Shown here in pieces: positions 16,307 to 48,076 of a stretch of 64,000 bases of DNA. Under the pieces are notes generated by a model, which worked only from the letters and a program-made list of their open reading frames with translations, was not told the DNA's origin and searched no databases. The translations under genes were made by a program, and so were the position numbers. The DNA lies in the NCBI GenBank assembly GCA_964521575.1, contig CAZFSR010000002.1:28740-92739 (forward strand), in the 5' to 3' direction. This DNA is from an uncultured Synergistaceae bacterium. GTDB lineage: Bacteria; Synergistota; Synergistia; Synergistales; 79-D21. Positions within the stretch are counted from its first letter, which is position 1. The number at the start of each line of letters is the position of its first letter.

Positions 16307-17548
16307 CTAAAGCCTTACCGTTTCTTCAACAAGTTCCATCTTGAAACTGGGCCGCTCAAGAAGGTAGGAAACAACACTTCCCAGAACTAGAGCCCAGAAG
16401 GCTCCACCGATCTGGAACATTGTCACGTCTGCCATCGCGATGACGAAAGAAGTGAAAGCCCCAAGCACGAACCGCTTGCTTCCAAAAGCTTCGTTCAGAG
16501 CGCCGATGATGATGTTCATGAGCACAAGCCCGACCAAAAGGCTGATGATCGCCTTGGGCAGCAGATGGATCATCGACAGGGACAATGGGGCGAACAGACC
16601 CAGTGCCCCAAAAAGGATGCCGTTCCAAACCGCAGCAACGTAGCGCTTCTCCGGTTCTCCGGCGTCAGGAGCGGAGCAGAAGGCCGTCATGGGCCCGGCG
16701 ATGTTCGCATTATGCCCGCCGAACCACGGGGCAACCAATCCTCCAAGGCCACTCATGATCGTCATCGCGTTGATTGGGGGATCGTATTTCTGAGAGGTGA
16801 GAACCCCTATGGCCTGCATGTTTTCCGCGGCGACGACGAGCAGGGCGAGGGGGATTCCAATTGAGACTATGGACTGGATCGTAAACACCGGCTTGAAGAA
16901 CATGGGCCTCGCAAAGCCGATCTCAATACCCTGCAGGTTGAGTTGACCCATGAATGCCGCGGCAATAATCCCGAAAACAAACGTGCCCAGCACGGGGGGA
17001 ACTTTCTTGAAGACTAGTCTGGAAAGGCCGTAGCCCACAATGCCCACGAGGCACAGGAGCGGGGCTTTTTGGAAAGCCCCAATCATCCCCATGGCCCATT
17101 TGAACAGGACTCCAGCCACCATGGCCATCATGATGGGAAGAGGGATCAATGCAATCAGTTTCTTGATCCACCCTGTGATTCCCAGGAAAAGGACAAGTAT
17201 CCCACTAACAAGAAAAGCACCCACCGCTTCGTTGAATGTGAAAGCCTTCAGCACGGATGCGATCGCAAAGATTCCCGGGATAGACCAGGCTCCCACGATG
17301 GGCTTCTTATACATGAGCGCCAGGATGATCCCCACCATGGCTCCAAAGAAATAAATGCTGAAAAGCCAGCTTTCAACGACCTCCTTTGAAAGGTTCGCGG
17401 ACTCTCCGGCCTTCAGCACAAGGGGAATGGCTACGAGACCGATGATGAACCCCCCTAAAACGCCCGTGCTGACATTCGCAATATTCATATCTCTTAAGAA
17501 GCTGCGGAACCCGTCCATCAGGCCTGAAGTTTTTTCAAACGTCACCAA
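16307..17548 (-). CDS. BenE-family (benzoate/H+ symporter-like) membrane transporter
   Basis: A ~410 aa polytopic protein whose overall pattern (GG.I.GLVAIP, ENMQAIGVL, GGHN.NIAGP..A.C) resembles BenE/YdcO. The start codon is uncertain (TTG 17548). Confidence 0.55.
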   Translation of the reverse strand: MVTFEKTSGLMDGFRSFLRDMNIANVSTGVLGGFIIGLVAIPLVLKAGESANLSKEVVESWLFSIYFFGAMVGIILALMYKKPIVGAWSIPGIFAIASVLKAFTFNEAVGAFLVSGILVLFLGITGWIKKLIALIPLPIMMAMVAGVLFKWAMGMIGAFQKAPLLCLVGIVGYGLSRLVFKKVPPVLGTFVFGIIAAAFMGQLNLQGIEIGFARPMFFKPVFTIQSIVSIGIPLALLVVAAENMQAIGVLTSQKYDPPINAMTIMSGLGGLVAPWFGGHNANIAGPMTAFCSAPDAGEPEKRYVAAVWNGILFGALGLFAPLSLSMIHLLPKAIISLLVGLVLMNIIIGALNEAFGSKRFVLGAFTSFVIAMADVTMFQIGGAFWALVLGSVVSYLLERPSFKMELVEETVRL

Positions 17549-17673
17549 TTAAAAGCACCCCCGCCTCAATAAGTTGTTTTTTAGAACCTGAAAAAGGCTA
17601 AAAAAACAGGCACGAGAATTTTCATCCAGCGCGCAATCGGAGAAACTCATTCGCTTTCCGACCACCCGCCTTC

Positions 17674-18546
17674 CTAGGACGCCAAAGCCTTTTGATAGGC
17701 TTCCCTTACGGCATTTTTCAGGACGACTCCTACCATCTCGGTGCGGTATTCCAGGCTCGCCCGGACGTCAGCGATGGGAGAAACCCTTCTCATGGCCGCC
17801 GAAATAAGCTGAGGGAACATTCCGGTTTCCGCTCTGGAACCTTTCAACCCATCCGCGACTTCGGGGAGAAGAAGAGGCGTGGGAGCCACGGCTCCCATGG
17901 CGACCACCGCATCCGTGATCGACCCCGTTTCCAGATCCACGAGAAGTTTCACGGCACAGTTGACCGTCGCCAGGTCCATGACAACCCGGCGGCTATGCTT
18001 GACGTAGGCAGTTCCCGCAGCACCTTTTGAAGGGACGACAAATTCCCTGATGATTTCCGTCTCTTCAAGGCATGTTTTGCCCGGGCCACTAAAGAGTTCA
18101 GACATGAGTATCTTCCTGTCGCCCCCCGGCCCAGTGACCAGGACCGAAGCCCCTAGTACGAGAAGAGGCGGAGCCGTCTCCGCCGAGGGAGAGGCATTGG
18201 CGATATTCCCTCCCATGGTCGCCATGTTTCGGATCTGGACCGAGCCCACTTTGCCGGCGGCTTCCGCGAGGACAGGAGCCTTCTCTAGGACAAGGGGGCT
18301 TTCCAGGATTTCCGTGAGTTTCGCACAGGCACCGATGTGAAGTTTTCCCTCCAGGTCGACGGAAATGCCCCGCAACCCAGCAATACGGGTGATGTCGATA
18401 AGAGAGCAGTCGTCGATCGCCCCCCTTTTGGCCCTTACGATGACGTCCGTGCCACCTGCGATGATCCTGGCGGAACCCCGATTTTCCTCCAGCAAGCCGA
18501 TCGCTTCAGGCAGACTGTCTGGTGTGAAATATCCGTTGATATTCAT
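17674..18546 (-). CDS. xanthine dehydrogenase family FAD-binding (medium) subunit
   Basis: It has ARIIAGGTD and a GGNIANASP-type FAD_binding_5 motif, is 290 aa long, and lies directly downstream of the Mo subunit. Confidence 0.85.
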   Translation of the reverse strand: MNINGYFTPDSLPEAIGLLEENRGSARIIAGGTDVIVRAKRGAIDDCSLIDITRIAGLRGISVDLEGKLHIGACAKLTEILESPLVLEKAPVLAEAAGKVGSVQIRNMATMGGNIANASPSAETAPPLLVLGASVLVTGPGGDRKILMSELFSGPGKTCLEETEIIREFVVPSKGAAGTAYVKHSRRVVMDLATVNCAVKLLVDLETGSITDAVVAMGAVAPTPLLLPEVADGLKGSRAETGMFPQLISAAMRRVSPIADVRASLEYRTEMVGVVLKNAVREAYQKALAS

Positions 18547-18549
18547 GGC

Positions 18550-20889
18550 CTATTGCGCCTCCTTTTCCTTCTGTTCCCGAAGAGCGCGCAGGACGTTCTC
18601 GGCGGTCATCGGGATTTCCTTGAGGCGGACCCCGGTGGCGTTGAAAACGGCGTTGCCCAGTGCCGGTACGATCGCGATGAGCGAAGCCTCCCCGATGGAT
18701 TTCGCCCCGAAGCCTGTCGTCCACTCGAAAGAGTCCACTACACCGGCATGGACCTTCGGCACGTCCCCTGCCGTTGGAATCTGGTAGTCGAGGAAAGAAG
18801 GATTGAGAAGCTTACCGCTCTTTCCGTAACGAAGTTTTTCCATCAGGGCCCAGCCATATCCCTGGACAACACCTCCCTCGATCTGGCCCTCGACACTCAG
18901 GAGATTGATGGCCTGTCCGACGTCGTGGATCGCCCAGATGTTGGGAACCCTGACCTGGCCAGTTTCTGTGTTGACCTCGACTTCGGCGATGTGGCAGCCA
19001 TAGGCATAACCGCCCGAGATGTTCCCAAACTTTTTCGCATCGGGGTAGACCACGTCCGAGGGGGGGACGAAGTACCCAAGCCCCTGCATCATCTGCCCGC
19101 CGTTATCGCAAATGTATTTCCATGAAACGTCCTGAAAGGAAGTCCTGAACGTTTCGTCCTTCGACCAGGCCACGCTCCGGTCCTTCAAGACGAGTTCTTC
19201 CGGGGGAAGGTTCATCATGATAGAAGCCGTCTCGACGAGTTTCTTCTTCAGGTCGAGTGCCGCGTTCTTTGTCGCCCCGCTCACGAGGTAGGTTCCGCGG
19301 CTCGCGAAACAGCCCAGCCCGAAGGGAACGACGTTCGTGTCGGGGTCCGGCACGAGGATGTCTTCGACATCCATCCCGAGGACCTCCGAGGCACACATGG
19401 ACGTGACAGTCCTGATGCCCTGCCCCATGTCCGGTTCGTTTGAGAAGACAAAAAGTCGGCCCTGGTCGTTCAACCTCAGGAGAACCGCCGCCCCCTCGAA
19501 TTCCCTGATAAAGGAGCGGTTTCCCGAAACATGGACACAGACTGCCGCACCGATCCCTCGCTTGATAGGTGAATTTTCAGTGGCGTTTTCCTTCTTGAAG
19601 GCTTCCCTCTTCTCATGGAAGCCGGAAAGACTCACGGCCTTGTCCAGGCAGGCCCGGACCTCGCAGCTGTTGGTCTTCCACCCGTGAGGGTTGGTATAGT
19701 TCGGCACAGCCAGGTTCTTCCTCCTGAGGTCGACAGGGTCGATGCCGAGTTGGTGGGCGACCTGGTCGAAGTGCGTTTCCTGGGCATAGTGCATCTGGGC
19801 ATTCCCGAAACCCCGGAAGCAGCCGGTCGGAACCTTGTTGGTGTAGACGAGGTCACAGATGGAGTGGACGACGGGAACCTGGTAGAGGATATCGATCCTG
19901 TACATGGCGGTAAGGGCGATCGGGGCCCCGTAGGAGGCATAGGCTCCGTTGTCTGCGATGATATAGACCTTTTTAGCGAGGAACTTCCCGTCACGACTCC
20001 AGGCTGTCTTCAGCTTGAAATACATGGGCAGCCGCGGCAGGCCGCACTGGAAATCTTCTTCCCTGTCCAGCACGAAACGTACAGGCTGGCCGGCATGCTT
20101 CGCCATGAGGGCCCCAAGGGGGTGGACCTGCTGGGAGAGTTTTGCTCCGAAACCTCCACCAAAATACGGCTGGATGATCTGGACCTTTTCGACCGGAACG
20201 TTGAGAGCCACGGCATAATCCCTGCGGGACCAGGTCGCGGTCTGGATCCCCGCGTAGATAGTGACGTTGCCGCGCTGGTCCCAGACTGAGACCCCTCCCA
20301 TGGGTTCCATGTAGCCCTGGTAGTGGAGATCCGTCTCGTACTCGTCCTCAAAGACAAAGTCGGCCTTCGAAAAGACTTCTTCAACGTCACCCCTTGGAAT
20401 GTCGAAATGATGATTCACGTTTTTAGGGAATTCATCATGGATCAGAGGGGCACCTGGCTTCATAGCGTCATGCAGGCTCAGAATCGCAGGAAGCGGTTCG
20501 TATTCAACCCGGATCAGCGACAATGCCTCCCGGCACGCATCCGCGTCGACCCCTACGACCGCCGCCACTTCGTCACCAACGAAGCGGACCTTGTCCCTGG
20601 CCAGGAGATACTCGTCCCTGGTGACGGGCCCCCACTTGTTCTGGTCAACATCCTTGCCCGTGATGACACATTTGACGCCAGCAACCTTTCTGGCGGCGGA
20701 CGTGTCGATGTCAAGGATCTTGGCATGGGGATGGGGACTTCTCAATGCCTTGCCCACAAGCATCCCGGGGAGCACAACGTCCGTGACGTAACGGGTTTTG
20801 CCCGTTACCTTCTCGGTTGCGTCAACGTAGGGGATCCGGGTTCCGACGACTCGGTAATCCTCTTTCTTGTGATCGTTCATTCCGGACAT
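18550..20889 (-). CDS. xanthine dehydrogenase/aldehyde oxidase family molybdopterin-binding (large) subunit
   Basis: Features include YRVVGTRIPYVDATEKVTGKTRY, GGGFG.K, CFRGFG.AQ and an E...L conserved C-terminus. The start is set at ATG 20889 (RBS GGAGG), not the long upstream overlap with the small subunit. Confidence 0.85.
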   Translation of the reverse strand: MSGMNDHKKEDYRVVGTRIPYVDATEKVTGKTRYVTDVVLPGMLVGKALRSPHPHAKILDIDTSAARKVAGVKCVITGKDVDQNKWGPVTRDEYLLARDKVRFVGDEVAAVVGVDADACREALSLIRVEYEPLPAILSLHDAMKPGAPLIHDEFPKNVNHHFDIPRGDVEEVFSKADFVFEDEYETDLHYQGYMEPMGGVSVWDQRGNVTIYAGIQTATWSRRDYAVALNVPVEKVQIIQPYFGGGFGAKLSQQVHPLGALMAKHAGQPVRFVLDREEDFQCGLPRLPMYFKLKTAWSRDGKFLAKKVYIIADNGAYASYGAPIALTAMYRIDILYQVPVVHSICDLVYTNKVPTGCFRGFGNAQMHYAQETHFDQVAHQLGIDPVDLRRKNLAVPNYTNPHGWKTNSCEVRACLDKAVSLSGFHEKREAFKKENATENSPIKRGIGAAVCVHVSGNRSFIREFEGAAVLLRLNDQGRLFVFSNEPDMGQGIRTVTSMCASEVLGMDVEDILVPDPDTNVVPFGLGCFASRGTYLVSGATKNAALDLKKKLVETASIMMNLPPEELVLKDRSVAWSKDETFRTSFQDVSWKYICDNGGQMMQGLGYFVPPSDVVYPDAKKFGNISGGYAYGCHIAEVEVNTETGQVRVPNIWAIHDVGQAINLLSVEGQIEGGVVQGYGWALMEKLRYGKSGKLLNPSFLDYQIPTAGDVPKVHAGVVDSFEWTTGFGAKSIGEASLIAIVPALGNAVFNATGVRLKEIPMTAENVLRALREQKEKEAQ

Positions 20890-20905
20890 CCTCGATGCCT
20901 CCTTC

Positions 20906-21403
20906 TCAGGCCATCTTTTCCGCGGCAAGGCGGACGGCGTCGAAGATCTTCTGGTAACCCGTGCATCGGCAGAGGTTTCCCGCAAGCCCTTCGCGAATCT
21001 GCTCGTCGGTGGGGTGCGGATGCTTTCGGAGCAGGACAAGGGTAGAGATGACGAAGCCCGGCGTGCAGAAACCGCACTGTACGGCCCCGGCCTCGACATA
21101 GGCCTCCTGGATGGGATGCAGCTTGCCACCCACGGAAAGGCCTTCGATGGTCAGGATTTCCGCCCCGTCCGCCTGTATGGCCGGCACGAGGCAAGATGTT
21201 ACCGACTCCCCGTTCATGAGCACGGTACAGGCTCCGCATTCGCCCTCGCCACACCCGCACTTCGTACCGAGCTGCCCCAGGTCCTCCCGAAGAACTTCCA
21301 CAAGAGTCCTGCTGGGCTTGACATCAACCTCGTAAAGGACGCCATTTACGGTCAGTGAAATTCGTTGTCGATTCATGCGATTCTTCGCCTCCATTGCGAT
21401 CAA
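20906..21403 (-). CDS. xanthine dehydrogenase family [2Fe-2S] (small) subunit
   Basis: It has CGCGEGECGACTV and QCGFCTPGF...NLCRCTGY, the two canonical 2Fe-2S cluster motifs. Confidence 0.9.
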   Translation of the reverse strand: MIAMEAKNRMNRQRISLTVNGVLYEVDVKPSRTLVEVLREDLGQLGTKCGCGEGECGACTVLMNGESVTSCLVPAIQADGAEILTIEGLSVGGKLHPIQEAYVEAGAVQCGFCTPGFVISTLVLLRKHPHPTDEQIREGLAGNLCRCTGYQKIFDAVRLAAEKMA

Positions 21404-21454
21404 CTGGTGAGAAAAAAGAAGCGGGTGCAGTCCACCTGCACCCGCCTCTTTGGT

Positions 21455-22675
21455 TTATCGGAAATCTCCCAGGAATACGGGCTTTGGTCCCTTCATGGAA
21501 ATGGCCCCCGCAGGACAAAGGGCCGCACAAAGACCGCAGCCGTCGCATTTTGCGGGGTCGATTGCGGAAACCTTCCTGTCACCCTCTGGGACCATCTCGA
21601 TCGCGTCAAAAAAGCACCACTTCGGGCAGAGCCCGCAACCGGTGCACTTATCGGCATCAACCTCGCTGATAGCCTTGCTTTCACGGTCTACCTTGTCCCA
21701 GGTGGTGATCTGAGGGAGAGTGATTCCTTTCAGGGAATTGATGTCCTTGATGCCGTGATCAACGAGGTACTTCTCGACTCCCTCAAGGAAGACCGAGATC
21801 TCCCCGAACTGCCGAGTGCCATACATCAAGGCCGTGCAGGTCTGGATCGTGGTCGCTCCGCACATCATGGCCTTGATCACATCTTCCCAGGAAAAGATGC
21901 CGTTGGTCGCGGAGATCGGCATTCCCGTGGCAGCTGCAATCTTGGCTATCCACTTAAGGGTAATGGGACGCATCCACGGGCCGCCGACACCCGCAAAACC
22001 TCCGTGTAGAAGGGGGCGCCCCGTTTCTATATCGACATCCAGGGCCGAGAACCGGTTCACAACCGTGAACCCCGAAGCGCCCGCATCGCGACATCGCCCG
22101 GCCACATCAACTATGTTCACGGCCTCGCTGGTCAGCTTCACAAAAACGGGAATCCCCACAGCATCGCAAACCGCCCGAGTCACCTCTGCGGCAGCTTCAG
22201 GCGAGTTCCCCAGTTCCTGCCCACTCTTGTACCCAAGGTCCTTCGGGTGGGGACAGCCGAAGTTCAGTTCCATCATCGGCAGTCCTAAGTCTTCGGTCCG
22301 TTTCGCAAGTTCGCGCCAAGTCGGTAGGGAGTTGCCGGAAATGCTTCCCACAAGCGTGCAGTCCAGCTCGTCGCAGAACTTTTTGGCAATCTTCAGTTCG
22401 TTGAACCACTGGTCGGTGTCGTAGGTCGCGAGAAACTCGCAGGAATAGTTGGAATAGCTGTGGGGCCATCCTTTCTTATTGAGGACGGTGAAGCGCGGGG
22501 AAACATACTGCTGTGCCAAGGGCTCGGGGCTGAATGTCTTGGCGATGACTCCCCCGGCTCCCGACTCGGCACAGCGGCGCATGTATTCGCCGTTCTTGCT
22601 GGGAGAAGCCGAGGCTACGATCATGGGATTCTTGAACTTGACGCCGCAGTATTCCACACGGAGATTCGGTTTCAT
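21455..22675 (-). CDS. dihydroorotate/dihydropyrimidine dehydrogenase-like flavoprotein with C-terminal 2x[4Fe-4S] (PreA-like)
   Basis: A DHOD-type TIM barrel (FKNPMIVASASPS...NFGCPH...) is followed by CTGCGLCPKWC and CDGCGLCAALCP. I prefer the start at ATG 22675 because of its RBS AGGAGG. Confidence 0.7.
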   Translation of the reverse strand: MKPNLRVEYCGVKFKNPMIVASASPSKNGEYMRRCAESGAGGVIAKTFSPEPLAQQYVSPRFTVLNKKGWPHSYSNYSCEFLATYDTDQWFNELKIAKKFCDELDCTLVGSISGNSLPTWRELAKRTEDLGLPMMELNFGCPHPKDLGYKSGQELGNSPEAAAEVTRAVCDAVGIPVFVKLTSEAVNIVDVAGRCRDAGASGFTVVNRFSALDVDIETGRPLLHGGFAGVGGPWMRPITLKWIAKIAAATGMPISATNGIFSWEDVIKAMMCGATTIQTCTALMYGTRQFGEISVFLEGVEKYLVDHGIKDINSLKGITLPQITTWDKVDRESKAISEVDADKCTGCGLCPKWCFFDAIEMVPEGDRKVSAIDPAKCDGCGLCAALCPAGAISMKGPKPVFLGDFR

Positions 22676-22714
22676 CTTGAACGTCACTCCTCCTTTTTTA
22701 GGTACCGCGGTCGT

Positions 22715-23116
22715 CTACCTAGGGGCTCCAGGCCCGTCCTTCAGTAGAGAGCAATTGGGATCCAAGGGCTTGTTGGGATCCTGGTAGCGGAACTCGATGG
22801 TGGTGCATCCGAGGGGAATGTCGTAAGGACCATGTTTCATGCCCACCAGACGTGATCCGTAGTAACCGGAGGCAATGGTGATTTTCTTGCCGGTGTCGAT
22901 GAGGTAGCCGGAGACGACGTAGACTTCTTCGCAGAAGTCGTGGCAAAGTTCTGCCTCAATCTCCGTCTGGGGGGGAAACTTCAGCATGCGCGTGTAATTC
23001 CCCGTCTGGGGATCGTAGGAGAAAATCTTCTCCATGACACCTTCCGGGGCACCTACCACCTGTCTCCACCCGCCTATAAGATCGATATCCATGATTTCGT
23101 ATTCCTGCTTTGCCAT
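22715..23116 (-). CDS. small cupin-like protein
   Basis: A 133 aa beta-rich sequence with H/E-containing segments (CHDFCEEVYVVSGYL, MKHGPY) resembles ChrR-type cupins. The call is weak. Confidence 0.4.
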   Translation of the reverse strand: MAKQEYEIMDIDLIGGWRQVVGAPEGVMEKIFSYDPQTGNYTRMLKFPPQTEIEAELCHDFCEEVYVVSGYLIDTGKKITIASGYYGSRLVGMKHGPYDIPLGCTTIEFRYQDPNKPLDPNCSLLKDGPGAPR

Positions 23117-23146
23117 TGTTCTTTCCCCCTTCTATTGTTTGGTTTT

Positions 23147-23851
23147 TTAGACTTTCTTCCTAAACCAGTTCGTCACGAGGTTGAATGACGTTGCCTGCGT
23201 GATCGTCCTACCCATCACGGGGTCGTGAAGGCTGACTTCGAAGTAAGGGCTGAAATCAATCCCGTAAAGGGACGCGATCGTCCCCGAAAAGACCATCAAG
23301 CCATCATTTGATGGCAGGTCGACAACTTCGCCTACCCTCCGAATTAGTTCCTCCGGCCCCATCAGGGCGGAGAGTTTTCCTTCCTGGAACAGCTTTCGCT
23401 CCCCGTCCTTCAGGATCCAGCTCCGAATTTCAAGGGAATCCCAGTGGGGCAAAACGTCTTCCAGCTTCCAGACGTCTTTCGAGATGAAGTTCGGGTAGAC
23501 CTGTTTCGCCTTGGGGATGTCGATTTCCTCGAGTTTCCTGTCGGTGTGGTCGTTCCCGGCCGCAACATAAACCGCCCCGTCTTTGAAAAGAAGGACATAC
23601 TCCGCTTCGCCGGTGTTGTCCGTATCCTTGAGGACATCATGCCGCTCTTCCTGCAGCACGCCCTCGGGGAAAACAGGAAAATAGACCGGTGTCTCTTCCG
23701 GCGCCGGGACCCCTTTTTCCTTCAATTCCTCGATGTGGGCCTGCACGCTGGCCTGGTCCCTGCCCGTATAGCCAGCATTCACGACCGTCTTGACCTCGAA
23801 CTCCAAAATTTTTGCGGGATCTCCGTCAACACTGAATTTCAAGATGTTCAT
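23147..23851 (-). CDS. hypothetical protein, DUF2848-like (possible FAH-fold)
   Basis: A 234 aa ORF with good coding appearance is the first gene of the xdh-family operon. The family call is from memory of DUF2848 size and pattern only. Confidence 0.35.
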   Translation of the reverse strand: MNILKFSVDGDPAKILEFEVKTVVNAGYTGRDQASVQAHIEELKEKGVPAPEETPVYFPVFPEGVLQEERHDVLKDTDNTGEAEYVLLFKDGAVYVAAGNDHTDRKLEEIDIPKAKQVYPNFISKDVWKLEDVLPHWDSLEIRSWILKDGERKLFQEGKLSALMGPEELIRRVGEVVDLPSNDGLMVFSGTIASLYGIDFSPYFEVSLHDPVMGRTITQATSFNLVTNWFRKKV

Positions 23852-24067: not shown

Positions 24068-24465
24068 CGCCGCATTCGTTAACTTTGTTTTCTGGGCCGA
24101 TCTCAGACAGCTGGCCCTGAAGCATAGCTATTTAGAACCTGTCAAGCTGAAAGACACTGTTTCGCTCCTGCTCTTGCTCAACTTGAGGCGTTCTTCCTCA
24201 TTGATATGTGGACACTTAAAAGGCCGCCATCTCTTTTTCAGAGACAGCGGCCTATGGGAGTCGTGCCCACAACGGTCACGAAGACAATATAACGGCCCTG
24301 GCAAGGGGGTTACAGCCAGGGTCTTCGAAAGTAAGAGGAGGTGAACCGTCTCTGTTCTTCTCCTTGATGGTCATAGGATACCCCTCTTCGATTTACCCCA
24401 CCTCGGCAAAAACCCATTCCAGACTAGGCGGTTTTACTGAACTCGTTCCCTCCCTGTGTCCAATC

Positions 24466-24488
24466 TAGGGGATTCCCTGATAGACAAA
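24466..24488 (+). repeat. island-boundary motif copy 1: TAGGGGATTCCCTGATAGACAAA
   Basis: It is a perfect 23-bp match to 48054-48076 in the same orientation. A 20/21 match occurs inverted at 39282-39302. Confidence 0.9.
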
Positions 24489-24597
24489 CTCTATTCGTTC
24501 GGGTTTGATAAAGGTTAAGTTTCAAATTTTTCAAATCTAGGCCTTTCCCCTACATTACCCCTTCATCAGGCATTGACAAAATCCATATCCGAGGAGC

Positions 24598-27165
24598 GTG
24601 GGATATTTGAAGACGTCAAGCACCCCTCTCCACACCATACTGGATAACGAAATTTTTAGCATCGTTGACGAGTACCAAATTCCTGAAAGAGAACCACATT
24701 TCGAGCAAATACCCACTGCTCTCCACCCACTAGTAAGAACAGCACTTGAAGGAGCTTTCCCCTCTGGAATCTATTCCCACCAAGCGAAAGGAATTGATTT
24801 ATTACTGGGCAACAAGGACATTTGCCTGGCAACCCCAACTGCTTCCGGAAAAAGCCTTGTTTTCATGTCTTATGCTGCCGATTTATTGCTTCGGACACCT
24901 AAGGCAAAGGTCTTGGCATTATACCCCGCGAAAGCCCTAATTCAGGACCAGCTGAAAAAATGGAAAACGTTCCTAACCCCGTTAAATTTGCCGGTCGGCT
25001 ATATTGACGGAGCGGTAAGATCCCCCGAAAGGGCTGCGATACTTCGCAGGTCAAACGTGGTCCTAATGACGCCTGATGTTGCCCACGCCTGGATTATGAG
25101 CAACCTATCCAACCAAGATGTGGCCTCTTTTCTATCCGCAGTTTCTCTTTTAATCCTTGATGAAGCTCATGTTTACGATGGCGTATTTGGAACAAATATG
25201 GCTTTTTTTCTCCGACGGTTGGAGTGCGTTTCACCATTGAGAAACATTGTGTCGAGCACTGCCACGATAGGAGATCCTGTCGGTTTCATTGAGAAGCTGA
25301 CAGGCAGGATCCCCATACTCATTTCAAAAAACGACGATGGGGCTCCCTCTTCTGCAAAAACGATATTTTTATCACGGTGTTCAGACAGTTCAATAGATAA
25401 TTTTGTCAATTTAATTACATCTCTGCCAAGCCTTAAGCTTGGCCCCTTCATCGCTTTTGCCGATTCAAGGAAGATGGTCGAACATATTGTCGCCATTGCT
25501 AAAAGAAACTGTATTCCTGAAAGAGATCCTCTCCAGAACATTGGAACGACGGAAGATACGTTAATAGATGACCCTCTAGAAGATAAAGATTCTTTTTTCG
25601 AAAGCTTGGGGATATTGCCCTATAGGGCAGGCTATGAGGAAGATGACCGAAATGAAATTCAAAGAGCGCTAGCTGAAGGACGGCTTTCCGGTGTGGTTTC
25701 CACGAGTGCTCTTGAGTTAGGCCTCGATATAGGAGAGATTTCAATAGTCGTGCTTATGGGTGTGCCTCCATCGGTTAAGGCCTTTTGGCAGCGGTTTGGT
25801 CGCGGAGGAAGGAAAGGGAATGGCTATTGCATTTTGCTTGACGACTGCAACGCAATAGAAGCAGACGGTTTATCTTCTTATCTGGACCGCACCCCTGAAC
25901 CTTGCTGGCTCTATCTCGAAAACCGATTTATTCAATATACACATGCCCTCTGCACCGCTTTGGAAACGATTGAATATCCAAACTATAACCAGAAACCATT
26001 AGAGACTCTCCCGGAAGACTTCCTCCACTTTATGAATAACGAAATCCTCCCTAGGGAGACGATACCCAACGATCTGTACCCTTTGAAGCAAAGGGCTGTA
26101 AATGGTCCACATTACGAGTTCCCATTAAGGTCCGGAATTGAAAAGAACCTGTCCATTTCAGAAAATAGTGGGTATTCTATGACGCGGTTGGGGAACGTTT
26201 CGTTTTCCCAGGCTCTTCGAGAAGCCTATCCTGGAGCGATTTATTATTATATGGCATGCCCTTATCGTGTTGTTTTTTTCAATTACAGACTTGGCGAAAT
26301 AAAGGTAAAGAAAGAGAAGCGCTGGACGACCAAGCCAATACTCCAAAACATGGTTTTTCCGAAAATGGATAATGGCGTCCTCGCGCTTCGCAAATCCAAA
26401 AGCGGATTCTTGATAGAAGCAAACCTACAAGTCAGCGAGAGGATAATCGGTTTCACGGAACAGAGAGGTCCCAATTCTGCCTCGCATTTATATGAACAGG
26501 GCAACTTCTACAGCCAGCGTCCAATAACGAGATTTTTTGAAACGACCGGTGTCTGCTGGTTTTTCGATGACAGGAGATTCCAATCAGAACCGTTAGCGAA
26601 TTTAATCTTAAAGGCCTTTTGTTACATTTGCGGGATACAGGAGAGAGACCTGGGTTTCGGAACCTTCCAAGCTCGTTCATGCCAATTTTGGGATCAACCG
26701 ACTCACGGGCTTTGTATTTATGATGCCGTGAACGGAAGCCTTCGTTTAACCAAGCAGCTATTTGAAAAGTTTGAAGAAATCCTTGCAACACTCGACTTTG
26801 GCCACTTTTTGTTGGATGAAGTTGATGATGAGTTGCGCTATGCTGTCAAACTATTTAAGAACGAAATTTCAACAACAGGTATTATGGATGTAAACGATGG
26901 GATAATCCTCACACCTCCCGCTGAGAATGATTGGGTAACCGTGATTTGTCCTGGAGAAAAGGGAATGTACATTGACGGAAATAACGAGGAGGTCAAAGTT
27001 CTCGGATACCGCTTCACACCTAACGGAATGGTTTACCAGTTGGAGCCATCCGGAGATCTTACGAACTGGATAGTTAAGATCGCAAGCGTCGTCCCGCTAT
27101 ATGGGATAACGAGGGTTGAGAAGTACAACCTCAACACCGGGGAAACAGCCCCGGTTACACAATGA
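24598..27165 (+). CDS. SF2 DEAD/DEAH-box helicase with DUF1998-like C-terminal domain (MrfA/DrmB-like architecture)
   Basis: It has motif I ATPTASGKS, motif II LILDEAHVYDG, motif III SSTATIG and motif VI WQRFGRGGRKG. The downstream segment AFCYICGIQERDLGFGTF...GLCIYDAVNGSLRLTKQL resembles DUF1998 but lacks an obvious 4-Cys cluster, and ~130 extra C-terminal aa follow. The start is GTG after the RBS GAGGAG. Confidence 0.8.
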   Translation: MGYLKTSSTPLHTILDNEIFSIVDEYQIPEREPHFEQIPTALHPLVRTALEGAFPSGIYSHQAKGIDLLLGNKDICLATPTASGKSLVFMSYAADLLLRTPKAKVLALYPAKALIQDQLKKWKTFLTPLNLPVGYIDGAVRSPERAAILRRSNVVLMTPDVAHAWIMSNLSNQDVASFLSAVSLLILDEAHVYDGVFGTNMAFFLRRLECVSPLRNIVSSTATIGDPVGFIEKLTGRIPILISKNDDGAPSSAKTIFLSRCSDSSIDNFVNLITSLPSLKLGPFIAFADSRKMVEHIVAIAKRNCIPERDPLQNIGTTEDTLIDDPLEDKDSFFESLGILPYRAGYEEDDRNEIQRALAEGRLSGVVSTSALELGLDIGEISIVVLMGVPPSVKAFWQRFGRGGRKGNGYCILLDDCNAIEADGLSSYLDRTPEPCWLYLENRFIQYTHALCTALETIEYPNYNQKPLETLPEDFLHFMNNEILPRETIPNDLYPLKQRAVNGPHYEFPLRSGIEKNLSISENSGYSMTRLGNVSFSQALREAYPGAIYYYMACPYRVVFFNYRLGEIKVKKEKRWTTKPILQNMVFPKMDNGVLALRKSKSGFLIEANLQVSERIIGFTEQRGPNSASHLYEQGNFYSQRPITRFFETTGVCWFFDDRRFQSEPLANLILKAFCYICGIQERDLGFGTFQARSCQFWDQPTHGLCIYDAVNGSLRLTKQLFEKFEEILATLDFGHFLLDEVDDELRYAVKLFKNEISTTGIMDVNDGIILTPPAENDWVTVICPGEKGMYIDGNNEEVKVLGYRFTPNGMVYQLEPSGDLTNWIVKIASVVPLYGITRVEKYNLNTGETAPVTQ

Positions 27166-28381: not shown

Positions 28382-28417
28382 GCTCTACATCCCTGAAGAG
28401 GATGACCCATTGAAACG
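28382..28417 (+). repeat. degenerate, oppositely oriented copy of the I-C array repeat (orphan crRNA-like repeat)
   Basis: GCTCTACATCCCTGAAGAGGATGACCCATTGAAAC compares with the array repeat in transcribed sense, GCTACATCCCCTCGCAAGAGGGGATGAGGATTGAAAC. About 30 positions align. It keeps a hairpin (CATCC/GGATG) followed by ..ATTGAAAC, but it lies on the strand opposite to the array. Confidence 0.45.
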
Positions 28418-29274: not shown

Positions 29275-30770
29275 ATGTCAATCCTCATCCCCTCTTGCGA
29301 GGGGATGTAGCTCCGTGGCTTGCTCGGCACCGTTTCCGCTGGCTCGTTTCAATCCTCATCCCCTCTTGCGAGGGGATGTAGCGAACACCCGCTGGCTGAA
29401 ACTTTCTCGGCAATGGTGGTTTCAATCCTCATCCCCTCTTGCGAGGGGATGTAGCCCGGTCAACGGTCAAAAGGGCCTTTGCCGCAGGGGAGTTTCAATC
29501 CTCATCCCCTCTTGCGAGGGGATGTAGCTCCGAGGAAAACGAAGCAAAGCTCTTTGAACTGTACGGTTTCAATCCTCATCCCCTCTTGCGAGGGGATGTA
29601 GCCCCGAAGGAAAACGGACCGCCGCAGGGGCGATCCTGGTTTCAATCCTCATCCCCTCTTGCGAGGGGATGTAGCCACAGCACTACTCCACCGCTACGTT
29701 CGCGTACCAATGGTTTCAATCCTCATCCCCTCTTGCGAGGGGATGTAGCAACAATGGGGCAGGCCGTTTGTCTGACGTTGGCGGAGTTTCAATCCTCATC
29801 CCCTCTTGCGAGGGGATGTAGCTCCGAGGAAAACGAAGCAAAGCTCTTTGAACTGTACGGTTTCAATCCTCATCCCCTCTTGCGAGGGGATGTAGCCCCG
29901 AAGGAAAACGGACCGCCGCAGGGGCGATCCTGGTTTCAATCCTCATCCCCTCTTGCGAGGGGATGTAGCCACGGCTCAATCTTCATGGGCGGCCTCCAGC
30001 TTGGCGTTTCAATCCTCATCCCCTCTTGCGAGGGGATGTAGCGTACGGGTCGTACAGCCCGACCAGCCCCGTGCGGGGGTTTCAATCCTCATCCCCTCTT
30101 GCGAGGGGATGTAGCCGGAGCGGTCCTGCTTGGCCTGCTGGATGTGCTCGATGTTTCAATCCTCATCCCCTCTTGCGAGGGGATGTAACCCCGACAAATC
30201 GCCTGCCGTATCGAGTCCTGCGGGGTTTCAATCCTCATCCCCTCTTGCGAGGGGATGTAGCGTATGCGACCGTGGCGTTCTGCTTGACCGTGGAGAAGTT
30301 TCAATCCTCATCCCCTCTTGCGAGGGGATGTAGCTCGGGGTTGACCTGACGCGCTTGTCGATGACGTGCACGTTTCAATCCTCATCCCCTCTTGCGAGGG
30401 GATGTAGCGTCGTTGACGGCCCGTCCGCCGACGGCACCCGCGTGGTTTCAATCCTCATCCCCTCTTGCGAGGGGATGTAGCGGGCAGGTGTACCGTTGAA
30501 CCTGCCTCGGACCGAAGGTTTCAATCCTCATCCCCTCTTGCGAGGGGATGTAGCCCGAGCAGTTTGAGGATGTTCGGCACCGTCACGCCGGTTTCAATCC
30601 TCATCCCCTCTTGCGAGGGGATGTAGCCGTCGCCGTCGGTCGAGGCCTTCCCGGCCCCGCCGTTTCAATCCTCATCCCCTCTTGCGAGGGGATGTAGCTG
30701 ATTGATGACGAGGATACAAGTTTGCTATTGAAGGTTTCAATCCTCATCCCCTCTTGCGAGGGGATGTAGC
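29275..30770 (-). CRISPR. CRISPR array with 21 repeats of 37 bp and 20 spacers of 34-37 bp; type I-C associated
   Basis: The plus-strand repeat is GTTTCAATCCTCATCCCCTCTTGCGAGGGGATGTAGC. The minus sense ends in ATTGAAAC, so transcription is co-directional with the cas genes from the leader at 30771-30951. Repeat starts are 29275 (degenerate first 3 nt), 29346, 29419, 29492, 29566, 29639, 29713, 29786, 29860, 29933, 30006, 30079, 30153 (G->A variant), 30225, 30298, 30372, 30445, 30518, 30591, 30662 and 30734. Confidence 0.97.
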
Positions 30771-36912: not shown

Positions 36913-39198
36913 CTAGACAGGGCCTAAAGAGCGAAGCTTCCGGACAAGGCCCAAGATGTCGACGTCATACTGGCCGCACCATTCGGCGACAGGAAAGTCA
37001 GGGGCGATCTGGACAATCAATCCTGCGTCCAGGGCTTCCTGGTAGGCGTGACGGCTCATGTTCACGACGTAAGGCTGCATTTTCCGCAACAGGATGCGTG
37101 TAGGAGACTCGCAGTATCTTGCTTCCGCAAGAAGGGTCCTGGCGTTTTGATCATAGGGAACAAGCACCTCAAACCGTTCTTCGTCGATGAGGTGAAATTT
37201 TTCTGCAATCGCGTCAAAGCGAAGGTAAGATGGGCTCCGGTCCTCCTGGATCTTTCGGGGGTCCTGTTCCACCCCTTCCCGGAGCCGCTGGAAATATTCT
37301 CTCTGGGCGTCCAGGTCCTCCGGGTTGGGATAACGGCGGAGGAGCGCCATTGCACTGTCGGTCCCGACCTTGTATTCCCCCTTCGGGGCCAGACCGTCTT
37401 CCAAGCAAAAGAGGACCACCTCTCCCAGGCAATCCAGTTTTCCCTCCCTGTTGCAGCGCCCCCCCACCTGGATGATGCGATCGAGGGGGCCCACGGCCCT
37501 CATGACAAACGGAAAGTCGAGGTCGACTCCGGCTTCCACAACCTGCGTGGAGACCAGGAGGCAAGGGAGCCCTTTGACCAGGCGCTCCCGCACCGCGGCC
37601 AACACCTTGCTGCGATGCGCGCCGCACAGGACGGTCGAGAGCATGAAGATCTCCCCGGGGTCAAATCCCCGGGCTTCGGCCGTTTCCCGGGCATATTCGG
37701 CTGCCCGCAGGGCGTCCTTCTTCGAGTTGAAGACAACCAGGCTCCTGGGGCGGGCCATGGCTTCGTCAATCACCTCGGAAAGGGAAACCGGGGCAAGATC
37801 CTTCATCCGGGAATACCGGACCCGCGCCAGTTTTTGGAACAGCCTGGAAGGGGCGTCGATGATGTCGTGAACGGACCCTTTCGGGAACCCCGAAAACCGG
37901 ACGGAAAACTCCTCCAGGGCCGGCTGGGTGGCGGAGCAGAGGACGATGGTCGTGTTGAAGTGTTTCGAGAGCAAGTGGAGGACGTCGATGATCGTGTCCA
38001 TGTATTTCTGGGGGAGCGTCTGGACTTCGTCCAGGATGACCACGCTGTTGGCGATTCGGTGAAGCTTCCGGCACCTGCTGGGCCGGTTGCTCATCAGGCT
38101 TTCCAGGAGCTGGACGTTGGTGGTCACGACGATCGGCAGATCCCAATTTTCGCTGGCAAGAGACAGGCGTACGTCTTCTGGAGTCGTGACCTCTAACTCC
38201 CTGACTCCGGTCCCGCTGTGATGCTCCAGGACATTTTCCGAACCGAAAATCGAGCGGTAGACCTTGACGTTCTGTTCGACAATCGAGGTGTACGGAATGG
38301 CGGTGATGACCCGGCTCATTCCATGTTTTGCGGCATGCTTCAAGGCAAAGGCCATGGCACTCCTGGTCTTGCCTCCGCCGGTGGGAACGCAAAGCCGGTA
38401 GATTCCCACCGGTCCTTCGGCCTTGTCGAAGCAAGCCTCGTAGACCTCTTTCCGAACCTCGTTGACAGGACCTGTCTTCCCTGCGGCAATCTCGGCCTGA
38501 CTCATCACCAGCTTCTCAAACAAGTCGTGAATCCGGGATCCGGCAGAAGCCCGCAAGGCAGATTTTTGGGGGCTGCCAGCCCTTTCCGCGTCCAAAGCAT
38601 CGGCGTCGGCGAGGGCAGACAGGAGCATGCGCAAAAAAACGTCAAGGGGGCCGGCAGACCGCCTTGTTTCTGGCCGGAAGTACCGGTTCCAAAGCTTGAT
38701 TTCGGCGGATGCGGCATTTAACAGGGTTGTGGAAAGTAAGGGATTTTCAAAATGTGACGAAAACCGATCCAAGGCGAGTTTGATATCGGCATAGACAGTT
38801 CCATCCGTCTTTCGTTTTGCTAGGCGATCCTTGAACTCGGCTTTGGAATGGAGCCCCCCATGATGGGAAGCGGCTATCCATGCCAGAGCGGACAGACCCA
38901 TGTTCTTTTTTTCTGTCAGAAACATGCTCCCCGCCGAAGAATGGTCAGGACCATGATGGCGCCCGCCGGATTCTTTTGAACCGAAATCTTTTATGCAGCT
39001 GGCGATGTATTCCTGAAAAAGGTCGCCCAATTTCCCGATGTCATGCGAAATCCCGAGAACCCGTCCAGTCTTTTCGAGACCGAACGGGGCAAGAAATTCC
39101 GAGGCAAGATCAGCCACGCAGGATGCGTGTTCCTTGAAGTCTTCACAAATACTAAAATTCTGGTATGTCCTAACAGGAAATTTCCTATCTAGCCCCAA
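36913..39198 (-). CDS. cas3: CRISPR-associated helicase/nuclease Cas3 (HD + SF2 helicase)
   Basis: The HD domain (EHASCVADLASEF...GISHDIGKLGDLFQ, HHGPDHS, ASHHGG) is followed by helicase motifs (VPTGGGKT, VILDEVQ, SATQP, QVGGRCNREG). The open frame extends to TTG 39453. That extension is AT-rich, low complexity and contains the inverted island motif, so I prefer TTG 39198, which is preceded by GAGG. The start remains uncertain. Confidence 0.85.
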   Translation of the reverse strand: MGLDRKFPVRTYQNFSICEDFKEHASCVADLASEFLAPFGLEKTGRVLGISHDIGKLGDLFQEYIASCIKDFGSKESGGRHHGPDHSSAGSMFLTEKKNMGLSALAWIAASHHGGLHSKAEFKDRLAKRKTDGTVYADIKLALDRFSSHFENPLLSTTLLNAASAEIKLWNRYFRPETRRSAGPLDVFLRMLLSALADADALDAERAGSPQKSALRASAGSRIHDLFEKLVMSQAEIAAGKTGPVNEVRKEVYEACFDKAEGPVGIYRLCVPTGGGKTRSAMAFALKHAAKHGMSRVITAIPYTSIVEQNVKVYRSIFGSENVLEHHSGTGVRELEVTTPEDVRLSLASENWDLPIVVTTNVQLLESLMSNRPSRCRKLHRIANSVVILDEVQTLPQKYMDTIIDVLHLLSKHFNTTIVLCSATQPALEEFSVRFSGFPKGSVHDIIDAPSRLFQKLARVRYSRMKDLAPVSLSEVIDEAMARPRSLVVFNSKKDALRAAEYARETAEARGFDPGEIFMLSTVLCGAHRSKVLAAVRERLVKGLPCLLVSTQVVEAGVDLDFPFVMRAVGPLDRIIQVGGRCNREGKLDCLGEVVLFCLEDGLAPKGEYKVGTDSAMALLRRYPNPEDLDAQREYFQRLREGVEQDPRKIQEDRSPSYLRFDAIAEKFHLIDEERFEVLVPYDQNARTLLAEARYCESPTRILLRKMQPYVVNMSRHAYQEALDAGLIVQIAPDFPVAEWCGQYDVDILGLVRKLRSLGPV

Positions 39199-39281
39199 CG
39201 AAAAGACCTCCGAAATAAATAGTCCCGCTCCAATAGGGGAGACCCCCCTCCCTGGAGGAGTAAACAACCAAAAAAATAAAA

Positions 39282-39302
39282 TGTCTATCAGGGAAACCCC
39301 TA
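39282..39302 (-). repeat. island-boundary motif copy 2 (inverted): TAGGGGTTTCCCTGATAGACA
   Basis: The reverse complement of 39282-39302 matches copies 1 and 3 at 20 of 21 positions. It lies ~85 bp upstream of the preferred cas3 start. Confidence 0.85.
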
Positions 39303-39532
39303 TTTTTCGATTTGAAAAGGGAGATAATGAGAATGTAAATTGTCGTTGGCGATATGATTTTGATTTTTTACGACGACAACATAAGTCGGTGAGGATAAGA
39401 ATCGGCTGGCTCAAGTGTCTCGAGCCAGCCGATTCTAGGAAGTATTTTTTCAAGTATTATGAAAAGTCAGTTTTTCGCAGGCAATTCTCGGTTCGCCACT
39501 GGAAGGGCAGAGGCAAGATGGATCGGATTGAA

Positions 39533-40021
39533 TTACAAGATAGGGGATTCCTCTTCTTTTTCTTCAGGATTTCTGCAAAACAATCCTGTCCTGAGCTTTT
39601 TTCTTGTGAGGATATCCAACAGTACACCCGAAAATTTACTTTCGAGGCAGCTCATCAAAACTTCCTGAAACAGTTCCTCGTCTTCCGTAGGCTCACCGCA
39701 AACGAGATGCCAATTCCCGCCGCGGTCACACACCTCGTTTTCTGCTCCGAAATGGCCGATTTCGATAACGCGAGCTAGCGGCGCATAATCTGGCATGGGC
39801 TTCAGCGTTCCCTGCAACGCGTCTTCCAGTGAGATCCAGGGAATCCGAAGCTCGAGGCAAGTGGCAACCTCCCCGATCTCCTCCGTGTCCAGGAGGACGG
39901 GCGCGATCACATAGCATTCCCTGACGACAATACCCTCGTCACTGATCTCCTTTAGCCATTCCGAACTGCCGTTGCACGTTCTGGCCGTGAATTCCTCCAG
40001 GGTTTCACGGTGCGTTCTCAT
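39533..40021 (-). CDS. hypothetical protein (paralog of 40046..40444)
   Basis: It has ATG with the RBS GGGAGGAATC and is 162 aa. It shares LE.F..RTC.G, .R.PW....DA, RVIE and VCG blocks with the upstream gene. I do not recognise a family. Confidence 0.55.
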   Translation of the reverse strand: MRTHRETLEEFTARTCNGSSEWLKEISDEGIVVRECYVIAPVLLDTEEIGEVATCLELRIPWISLEDALQGTLKPMPDYAPLARVIEIGHFGAENEVCDRGGNWHLVCGEPTEDEELFQEVLMSCLESKFSGVLLDILTRKKLRTGLFCRNPEEKEEESPIL

Positions 40022-45149: not shown

Positions 45150-46286
45150 TCAAGCGGCGATCGAATTGCCATTCCTCAGCCGGTTTAGAGGACTGTATTT
45201 GTCATGGTCTGCGATTATCGGAGCGCCTTTGTAGTTCGCGTAGCGTTGCGCCATTGCGGGAGTTTTGTGCCCCAGAAAGGCCTGTAGCCGATTCTGGTTA
45301 TACTTCGTGTCCTCGTAATAGGCCATTGCGGCGTAGTGCCTTATCCCGTAAGGCCTTATGCTCTCGGTCATGTCCTTGCAGTAATCGTGAAGCCGTCGGT
45401 ACCAGGTATTGCCCGACATGGGCTTCCCTTTAGCCGTGCAGAAAAGCGGTGCTCCAGGAGGAATTCTCTCTGCTTTCCTCTTGGCAAGCCAGCTCTTCAA
45501 GGTTTTGACCATCTCCCTTGAAAGTGGAAGGGCCCTCGAGCATCGGTTCTTTGTGTCATCGGCGCTTAGGTGGACACAAGGATTTTTCGCCGCAAAATCC
45601 AGGTCCGCTGGCACCACTTTGAGGGCTTCTCCCGGCCTGATGCCCGTGTCGATTTGGAACTGGAGAAGAACGAGATCTCGAAAGCCTTCGAAAGCGTCCC
45701 TATTCTTTTCCTTTTGCATTCTTTCAAGGAGTTTGTCGATCTGTTCATCCTTGATGTTGACGATTCGACCCTCATCGTACCTCTTGGATCTTCCAGCAAT
45801 CGGGTTTCGCTTCAAGACTGCCAGATGATCCTTATATTTTTCCTCTTGCTCCGCCCCCTCCGGCACGGTAAGAAAATTAAAAAAAGCCCGCAGGTAAACG
45901 AGTCTAAGGTTGAACGTAGCCGGAGCGATATTCTGACTGAAGTGCGCATCGAGACATTCCTTGAGGCATTTTGGGTTTACTGCCTGAGGGTAGCGCCGAA
46001 AAAAAAGTTCCACGGTTTTCTCATAGTCGGACTGGGTCCTTGACGAAATGGGCTTATTCCAGGGAACACTCGTCTTCCACTGGATGAACGCGCTGAGCCA
46101 TATCCGCCAGACTTGAGTCTGTCCGTTTCCCGCGTTCGCTATGAGATTCGGTGTTGCACTGGACAGCCTCTTAGCTCTTATCGAGCTAACGTTAGTCGGT
46201 GCCTTCCTCTTTGCCCTGAGAAGAGAATTGGCTTTCCCAGTTGAGGTCTTCAGTTGCCCGCCAACTGCCGACGACGCCTTCTTCAT
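45150..46286 (-). CDS. tyrosine-type site-specific integrase
   Basis: It has GIRPGEALKV, IRPYGIRHYAAMAYY and LGHKTPAMAQRYANY. The start is ATG 46286, 9 nt after GGAGGG. Confidence 0.85.
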   Translation of the reverse strand: MKKASSAVGGQLKTSTGKANSLLRAKRKAPTNVSSIRAKRLSSATPNLIANAGNGQTQVWRIWLSAFIQWKTSVPWNKPISSRTQSDYEKTVELFFRRYPQAVNPKCLKECLDAHFSQNIAPATFNLRLVYLRAFFNFLTVPEGAEQEEKYKDHLAVLKRNPIAGRSKRYDEGRIVNIKDEQIDKLLERMQKEKNRDAFEGFRDLVLLQFQIDTGIRPGEALKVVPADLDFAAKNPCVHLSADDTKNRCSRALPLSREMVKTLKSWLAKRKAERIPPGAPLFCTAKGKPMSGNTWYRRLHDYCKDMTESIRPYGIRHYAAMAYYEDTKYNQNRLQAFLGHKTPAMAQRYANYKGAPIIADHDKYSPLNRLRNGNSIAA

Positions 46287-46428
46287 GCGGAACATCCCTC
46301 CAAAAATTTTCCCGCACAGTTACTCTCGTCCGGGGGAGAAGCACTGTCCATTGCTCCTCTTTTTTTCCATGAATGTCCCTCCCTTCCAAAATAGGATTTA
46401 CTTCCGAATACAAAGAACCCCGTAAGGC

Positions 46429-47884: not shown

Positions 47885-48053
47885 GGCGACAGTCCAGCTG
47901 ACCGAAAAACCTGATGGCTGCGGGAACGGGAGGACGGACAAGCGAAAAACCCCCTTACATTTCCGCAAAGGGGTTTTTGAGGGGTTTTTCCAGTCCGCTG
48001 GGGAGGGCCAATTTCAACCCCAGCGGATTCGCCTTCGAAAACGGGTTAATAAA

Positions 48054-48076
48054 TAGGGGATTCCCTGATAGACAAA
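48054..48076 (+). repeat. island-boundary motif copy 3: TAGGGGATTCCCTGATAGACAAA
   Basis: It is a perfect match to 24466-24488 and lies 30 bp beyond the 3' end of tRNA-Leu. Confidence 0.9.

Follow-up and report, generated by a model that had tools for sequence, protein, structure and literature searches.

The SF2 helicase gene and the cas3 operon in the window, by which we mean the whole 64,000-nucleotide stretch that was analysed, lie behind the same cis-element in the same orientation. This element is a conserved 21-mer, TAGGGG(A/T)TTCCCTGATAGACA, whose palindromic core recurs throughout the genus, faces genes, stands in a fixed phase to a -10-like hexamer, and is conserved together with the helicase gene. 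The 21-mer most likely acts as a promoter-linked operator to which a protein binds, and we put at roughly 0.6 the probability that it is the promoter dyad of a genus-wide regulon in which the helicase and type I-C genes are co-regulated members. A regulatory input common to both units is therefore probable, as an earlier sequence-only reading of this DNA had proposed. That reading saw a private coupling between the two; since the same element stands before a dozen unrelated genes in the genus, it is better described as a shared regulatory site than as a private helicase-CRISPR switch. From the sequence we infer the transcription starts, the binding of a protein and the sign of regulation.

The conserved element and its copies

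Three exact matches to TAGGGGWTTCCCTGATAGACA are present in the window (Table 1), compared with 0.00 in 100 shuffles. In the 2.3 Mb source genome (G000), the 21-mer has seven copies at up to three mismatches and none in the reversed control, a weight-matrix scan returns 18 sites above 18 bits and none in the reversed genome, and the relaxed and matrix scans lead to about 13 sites of the 21-mer family. True sites score 41-46 bits with the family matrix. Six of the copies in this genome are identical at 20-21 of 21 positions, including the asymmetric left half (CTAGGGGA), which is more than selection on a binding site normally gives and suggests that the 21-mer has been spread by recombination. 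A search for the exact 21-mer in 596 Gb of genomes gave two matches, about the chance level, one of them in a Synergistales genome; none was found in viral contigs, and none of the papers searched contains the palindrome.

The sequence-only reading had drawn the unit differently, as TTTTCAAATC followed by TAGG..TTTCCC. All of the strings that it quoted are where it placed them: 24466-24488 reads TAGGGGATTCCCTGATAGACAAA, 24528-24558 reads TTTTCAAATCTAGGCCTTTCCCCTACATTAC, the reverse complement of 39282-39318 reads TTTTCAAATCgaaaaaTAGGGGTTTCCCTGATAGACA, and a TTTACA-17-TTCAAA pair precedes the cas3 copy. The TAGG..TTTCCC part is the conserved 21-mer, and the genome-wide matrix search that had been suggested recovers its family far beyond chance; the 10-mer and a proposed second helicase site fall outside that family. 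The window contains two copies of TTTTCAAATC where 0.24 are expected, a count that 5 of 100 shuffles attain, and the genome contains five where about 1.1 are expected. Two of these five copies lie near the helicase and cas3 motifs, but at cas3 the 10-mer precedes the motif by 6 nt and at the helicase gene it follows the motif by 41 nt; it accompanies none of the other ~11 sites and is not conserved upstream of a 90%-identical helicase homologue. The supposed second site, at 24538-24558, matches the 21-mer at 11 of 21 positions and scores 2.7 bits, compared with 41-46 bits for true sites.

A weak motif-like match at 39164-39190, within the first cas3 codons, scores 13.8 bits, which is at noise level, and was set aside. 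Half a motif copy (ATAGGGGATTCC), 240 nt away from the cas3 copy, is found at 39540-39551, in the 3' end of the mobile element's last small gene; chance or a remnant of an older junction may account for it.

Table 1 Features at the helicase, cas3 and tRNA-Leu loci (positions in the window).
Feature	Position	Strand	Remarks
Helicase copy of the 21-mer, TAGGGGATTCCCTGATAGACA	24466-24486	+	Matrix score 42.1; dyad core ~24465-24481
-35-like hexamer TAGACA, helicase	24481-24486	+	Last six bases of the 21-mer
Predicted -10 TTTGAT, helicase	24504-24509	+	17 nt after the -35; placed from phasing statistics; predicted start near 24516
TTTTCAAATC and proposed second site TAGGCCTTTCCCCTACATTAC	24528-24558	+	No motif instance; not conserved
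SF2 helicase gene (DEAD + Helicase_C)	24607-27165	+	Likely start TTG 24607; RBS GAGGAG 24591-24596
cas3 (type I-C), 761 aa	36913-39198	-	TTG 39198; RBS GGAGG 39211-39207
Predicted -10 TTTACT, cas3	39259-39264	-	17 nt after the -35; predicted start near 39252
cas3 copy of the 21-mer, TAGGGGTTTCCCTGATAGACA	39282-39302	-	Matrix score 41.4; -35-like TAGACA at 39287-39282
TTTTCAAATC	39309-39318	-	Precedes the cas3 motif by 6 nt; probably incidental
Hairpin with 18-bp arms	39398-39436	-	Separates the cas3 promoter from the mobile element's last gene
Third exact copy of the 21-mer	48054-48074	+	Between an integrase gene (46985-47968, -) and tRNA-Leu (48106-48192, -); faces the tRNA

A palindrome kept throughout the genus

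The core of the 21-mer family is the palindrome ATCAGGGA-W-TCCCTGAT (8-1-8, odd symmetry), in which all 17 positions are informative and whose intact form is ATCAGGGAATCCCTGAT. With at most one mismatch, the pattern TNRGGGAWTCCCTGAT occurs in 2-14 copies in each of nine genomes of the genus (the source genome and eight relatives), against 0-1 in reversed controls. Many of these copies are the perfect 17-bp palindrome. These site counts overstate independence, because the genomes are kin and several of the sites are paralogous. The palindrome is found at orthologous, non-mobile positions in the 3' flank of tRNA-Leu(CAA) in five relatives and, in four genomes, in the divergent region between a secreted-protein gene and a gene for a protein of ~470-990 aa. 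The secreted protein ends in what we take, from reading the tail by eye, to be a Synergist-type C-terminal sorting tail.

At C18:3562-3578 of the source genome, two divergent genes have between them a perfect 17-bp palindrome, which is flanked by TAGAAT at 17-18 nt on either side. This arrangement has orthologues in L067, L071 and L078 and is thus kept in four genomes of the genus; one dyad apparently serves two promoters there. Conservation across the order was also considered and rejected, the enrichment outside the genus coming mostly from conserved coding sequence (glycogen-phosphorylase-like IDQVFPDD, ClpX), and the regulatory motif appears to be essentially genus-restricted.

Phasing with a predicted promoter

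The information profile of 20 sites shows an A-tract just upstream of the motif, high information at positions 1-22 and a second peak at positions 39-44, in which the final T is nearly invariant. We counted as -10-like any hexamer that agrees with TATAAT at four or more of six positions and shares its final T. At 11 of 15 independent sites, meaning sites with non-homologous downstream sequence, such a hexamer follows motif position 21 at a distance of exactly 17 nt; any other offset is found in at most three. In a second set of 28 site orientations in the relatives, which were picked by the palindrome alone, 10 have the hexamer at the same 17-nt offset, compared with 0.43 per offset elsewhere. 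Perfect palindromes have TAGAAT at the 17-nt distance on both sides, as expected of divergent promoters.

On the basis of this fixed phase, the last six bases of the motif (TAGACA, TTGACA or TTGACC) correspond to the -35 hexamer. At core-genome sites the hexamers in this position are not conserved (TACCGG, TATCCC, TGGCGC) and are paired with a TAGAAT -10; at the helicase and cas3 sites, TAGACA matches the consensus at five of six positions and the weak element is the -10. Both -10 hexamers are without A at position 2, and a strict sigma-70 consensus scan makes no call at either. Assuming a transcription start 7 nt after the -10, we infer that the centre of the dyad lies near -43 of a predicted sigma-70-type promoter, upstream of the -35. 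The common operator of the sequence-only reading thus survives as a shared element that is likely an operator tied to a promoter, but not as one lying over the transcription start. The TTTACA-17-TTCAAA promoter pair that it had recognised has no counterpart at the helicase gene or at any other site; the phased -35/-10 pair is downstream of the motif.

A co-directional ORF begins 21-138 nt downstream at 10 of the 13 sites in the source genome. Three sites have no gene downstream in the orientation of the motif (both tRNA-Leu flanks and C2:9027), and the window copy at 48054-48074 is one of those beside tRNA-Leu. The motif fronts about 11 promoters in the source genome besides those of the helicase gene and cas3, and many promoters in all eight relatives, which is not compatible with the private coupling that had been proposed. 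The genes behind it here encode Adhesin_E-like, beta-helix/NosD-like and Zn-ribbon/SH3 membrane proteins, mostly with surface or envelope functions, and those in the relatives encode Wzy_C, Poly_export/SLBB and Polysacc_synt_2 proteins. The mobile or defence cargo behind the motif consists of genes for an SDH-type protease, a DUF4160 protein, the helicase and Cas3.

Read on the opposite strand, the motif could instead be a small intrinsic terminator or a REP-like hairpin followed by a T-run. The reverse strand does give a hairpin and a T-tract, the perfect palindrome folds at -11.6 kcal/mol, and in the native tRNA-Leu flank a -20 kcal/mol hairpin, to which the motif contributes the 3' arm, precedes TTTTT; this flank is probably the only place where the terminator reading holds. 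However, the hairpin has only 4 bp (-4.9 kcal/mol) at cas3 and at the island tRNA copy and reaches -10.3 kcal/mol at the helicase gene, and no gene ends upstream of it in that orientation at the helicase gene, cas3 or most other sites. Moreover, the motif shows sequence conservation rather than covariation, and both TAGACA and the -10 would be left unexplained. Weak hairpins and the absence of a gene end led us to reject this reading at the helicase gene and cas3, and as a general account of the motif it is very unlikely.

Candidate regulators

The sequence-only reading had taken the element for a repressor operator overlapping the transcription start, composed of TTTTCAAATC and TAGG..TTTCCC and bound by the XRE-like protein of the island (46429-46923), which would privately couple the helicase/recombinase module to the type I-C genes. 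In addition to the presence of its strings and of the promoter-like pair before the cas3 copy, a weak Crp-type helix-turn-helix match in the XRE-like protein speaks for it. However, at a cut-off of E<=0.001, with the source genome as positive control, the XRE-like gene has no counterpart in seven of the eight relatives, each with the palindrome in its genome; the remaining relative, G005, has one weak match (E 4e-5, 31% identity, residues 15-86). Considered with the shifting position of the 10-mer and its absence from the other sites and the 90% helicase homologue, the 2.7-bit score of the second site, the helicase gene having no upstream promoter pair, and the ~11 further promoters, this makes the reading very unlikely as a whole.

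We looked for a regulator gene beside the inspected sites and found none, and no helix-turn-helix gene recurs there. A winged-helix gene beside one site in G006 has no homologue in the source genome.

The helicase and cas3 loci

The motif lies upstream of both genes, as had been claimed, but at revised distances. The RBS GAGGAG is a better fit to TTG 24607 than to GTG 24598, and with the start moved to this TTG the motif ends 120 nt upstream of the helicase gene. The cas3 start is fixed at TTG 39198 by the reading frame, the RBS GGAGG and a recorded 761-aa gene product (P0002) identical to the translation, so that the motif ends 83 nt upstream. In the long ORF, alignments to Cas3-family models begin at residue ~104. 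The gene is the first of the operon, which has the order cas3-cas5-cas8c-cas7-cas4-cas1-cas2.

Two unrelated contigs, L117 and L118, carry the closest helicase gene (90% identity); TAGGGGTTTTCCTGATAGACAAAC occupies the corresponding place there, and the motif is kept upstream in the form TAGGGGTTTTCCTGATAGACA. Compared with the window, TTTGAT at the -10 and the part of the leader next to the RBS are conserved, divergence affects the 17-nt spacer and the far leader, and unrelated sequence stands in place of TTTTCAAATC and TAGGCCTTTCCCC. Homology of these contigs to the helicase locus starts at the 5' edge of the motif, and their upstream neighbour is a different gene. When the flank of the closest-helicase contig was sought in genomes of the genus, it was absent from five. 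On the other side, the left flank of the window locus together with the motif has 75% identity over 207 nt to an integrase-bearing element on C15, and this similarity ends at the 3' end of the motif.

The ~200 nt to the left of the helicase motif (24283-24487) are 75% conserved beside motif copies at G000:C15:20083-20279 and are partly present in G004 (L016). This conserved stretch contains a short reading frame (..PPLTFEDxGCNPLA..), which is truncated in the window.

The closest cas operon (L116; Cas3 81% identical) has a plain TTGACA-17-TAAAAT promoter and no motif. Its nucleotide identity to the window is 82-86% over 39144 to 30734, and protein similarity extends slightly further upstream. 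The link between the motif and cas3 is thus not ancient. Given that L117 and L118 keep the motif and that the closest cas operon is without it, these comparisons indicate that the motif is an integral part of the helicase module and a lineage-specific replacement at cas3. The hairpin at 39398-39436 probably insulates or terminates, in which case cas3 would need a promoter of its own.

In the same relative, a second CRISPR array (L116:9060-9990) lies directly upstream of cas3, together with the canonical promoter. The counterpart of this region in the window (39199-39400) consists of the motif promoter, the hairpin with 18-bp arms and the edge of the mobile element.

The island and possible recombination at the motif

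A 61-nt direct repeat of the 3' part of tRNA-Leu(CAA) is found at C2:19131-19207 and at window positions 48106-48180 (C2:76845), 57.6 kb apart, and in the relatives the distal flank directly adjoins tRNA-Leu. These two observations define a composite island of ~57.6 kb (window 1-48105, G000:C2:19208-76844), which bears integrase genes at 46985-47968 and 45150-46295 and also a xanthine-dehydrogenase-type operon at 16307-23851. Further partial tRNA copies in G004 and G006 suggest that tRNA-Leu is an insertion hot spot in the genus. A search for relatives of the mobile element or of its integrase found none that were useful.

Several pieces of evidence suggested that the 21-mer could be a recombination (att-like) site of the island tyrosine integrases, with its copies marking module junctions and promoter activity being secondary: (i) The copies at 24466 and 48054 form exact 23-bp direct repeats that flank 23.6 kb. 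(ii) An integrase gene lies 86 nt from the right copy, which also has a tRNA beside it. (iii) Integrase genes are located near the copies at C2:9027 and C15:20104. (iv) At the helicase locus the motif is the joint of a mosaic, in which left flank and motif correspond to C15 and motif and right side to L117/L118. (v) The cas3 promoter is unlike that of the closest relative. Direct repeats, an integrase and tRNA beside one copy, and mosaic junctions are likewise features of the att cores of tRNA-targeting tyrosine integrases. However, the arms of the dyad are 1 bp apart and leave no overlap region of 6-8 bp, and the boundary of the island, its real att repeat, is the 61-nt 3' segment of tRNA-Leu (C2:19131, C2:76845) and not the 21-mer. 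All eight relatives also lack the sequence left of 24466, the cas3 copy is inverted, the palindrome occurs at conserved, non-mobile promoters in all genomes of the genus, and a fixed 17-nt phase with a -10 would be meaningless for an att site. We consider an att-like site unlikely and retain recombination at the motif as a possible secondary property.

The two functions could be combined if the 21-mer were a portable operator-promoter cassette that also serves as a crossover point for module exchange, which we regard as unlikely. The crossover might be homologous, through the 21-27 identical bases, or be catalysed by the neighbouring integrases. If so, a crossover would drop foreign cargo such as a type I-C cas operon or a large SF2 helicase behind a ready-made, host-regulated promoter and would enrol it in a surface-remodelling regulon in one step.

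It is also conceivable, though unlikely, that the element is a constitutive promoter carried around as a cassette, without a regulator of its own, its palindrome being an upstream promoter element or a remnant spread with mobile DNA. The near-identity of six copies in unrelated contexts, the near-consensus -35 of the mobile-type copies, the co-travelling of the motif with the helicase gene and the lack of a regulator beside the inspected sites would all fit such a cassette. On the other hand, orthologous core loci retain perfect 17-bp symmetry although their -35 hexamers (TACCGG, TATCCC, TGGCGC) are not conserved, one dyad serves two divergent promoters, and G+C-rich dyads are not known upstream promoter elements.

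Fragments of a DUF772 (IS5-like) transposase adjoin motif copies at L117:5850-6236, G000:C2:2954-3457 and L069. An insertion sequence that targets the palindrome is a possibility raised by these fragments at three unrelated loci.

A predicted regulon and its relation to known systems

In the binding-site model, the helicase gene and the cas3 operon would each lie behind a lineage-specific module consisting of a short A-tract, the palindrome, a -35-like TAGACA or TTGACA, and a -10-like hexamer 17 nt further on. A dimeric DNA-binding protein from the core genome of the genus would most likely bind the dyad and touch RNA polymerase in the geometry of a class II activator; we favour such activation modestly over the alternative in which a repressor occludes the -35. 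An activator fits better in view of the strict -10 spacing, the use of one dyad for divergent promoters and the non-conserved -35 hexamers of the core sites. The regulon would comprise ~13 promoters here and a comparable set in every relative, serving secreted and surface proteins, polysaccharide export, and mobile or defence cargo. Acquired defence genes would then have been placed in a host regulon by a lineage-specific transcription-factor site, probably one for an activator.

At class II activator promoters, CRP and FNR sites are centred at -41.5, and LuxR-type lux/tra boxes near -42.5. The predicted promoters resemble these in that a palindrome abuts or replaces the -35, keeps a fixed distance to the -10, and is shared by a regulon that includes a cas operon, with a dyad centre near -43 rather than -41.5. 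Unlike CRP and FNR sites, which have the even 5-6-5 dyad TGTGA-N6-TCACA, the motif is the odd dyad ATCAGGGA-W-TCCCTGAT, and it is also unlike lux boxes. Class II promoters have a weak or absent -35 for which the activator compensates; the core-genome sites agree with this, and the helicase and cas3 promoters combine a near-consensus -35 with a weak -10. Quorum-sensing control of cas operons is known, and cAMP-CRP reportedly controls cas promoters in Thermus thermophilus. Examples of host regulators of cas expression are given in PMC6393702 and PMC8450108.

Operators of odd symmetry are common to two families of repressors, the lambda cI/Cro-type (XRE) and the TetR-type, whose sites have 17 or 15 bp. 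The present element is similar in having a contiguous 8-1-8 dyad with half-site centres about one helical turn apart, and such operators are often associated with mobile DNA. However, they usually overlap the -35, the -10 or the start at variable positions and repress, whereas the motif here keeps a constant position before the -35 and a single dyad is shared by divergent promoters; in addition, the XRE-like gene of the island is not conserved in the genus. Anti-CRISPR promoters under Aca control contain inverted repeats that are bound by the Aca helix-turn-helix repressor. An inverted repeat at a promoter on the border of a mobile element and a CRISPR-Cas locus recalls this arrangement, but the motif faces cas3 and not the small genes of the element, no helix-turn-helix gene follows it, and it is genus-wide.

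To our knowledge, host control of horizontally acquired defence systems is poorly documented outside a few model bacteria, and we are aware of almost no regulatory knowledge for this phylum. In an uncultured Synergistales lineage, a cas operon lies behind a lineage-specific, predicted operator-promoter, whereas its closest relative has an ordinary promoter; copies of the predicted operator-promoter are also found in front of a mobile helicase module and of surface-protein and polysaccharide-export genes. Such an arrangement hints that CRISPR-Cas expression may be tied to remodelling of the cell surface. A regulon of this type would be ordinary in kind, although its members are new; it replaces the notion of a switch private to the helicase and CRISPR genes and provides a concrete, testable motif, ATCAGGGAWTCCCTGAT.

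Further observations on the leaders, the array and the helicase family

An additional similarity between the two leaders was considered and rejected. It matches at 17 of 21 positions (24489-24510, TCTATTCGTTCGGGTTTGATA, against 39206-39186, TCTTTTCGTTGGGGCTAGATA), and 1.8% of shuffles reach its score; it pairs the spacer of the helicase promoter with the RBS-to-start region of cas3, positions that differ between the leaders, and is probably due to chance.

Autoregulation of cas by a crRNA-guided (CreR-like) mechanism was rejected as well, the pseudo-spacer that follows the orphan repeat at 28382-28417 having no match near either promoter; in a comparison of the array spacers with the genome, no match was found outside the array. 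Within the array, spacers 4-5 (29529-29637) are repeated exactly as spacers 8-9 (29823-29931), a block duplication of two units.

The helicase (24607-27165) has DEAD and Helicase_C as its only Pfam domains, and defence-system models (BrxHI, SngC, Cas3) give weak matches to its core. It belongs to a large family, with 770 proteins of ~850 aa at E<=1e-80 from many phyla, which are typically 45-55% identical.
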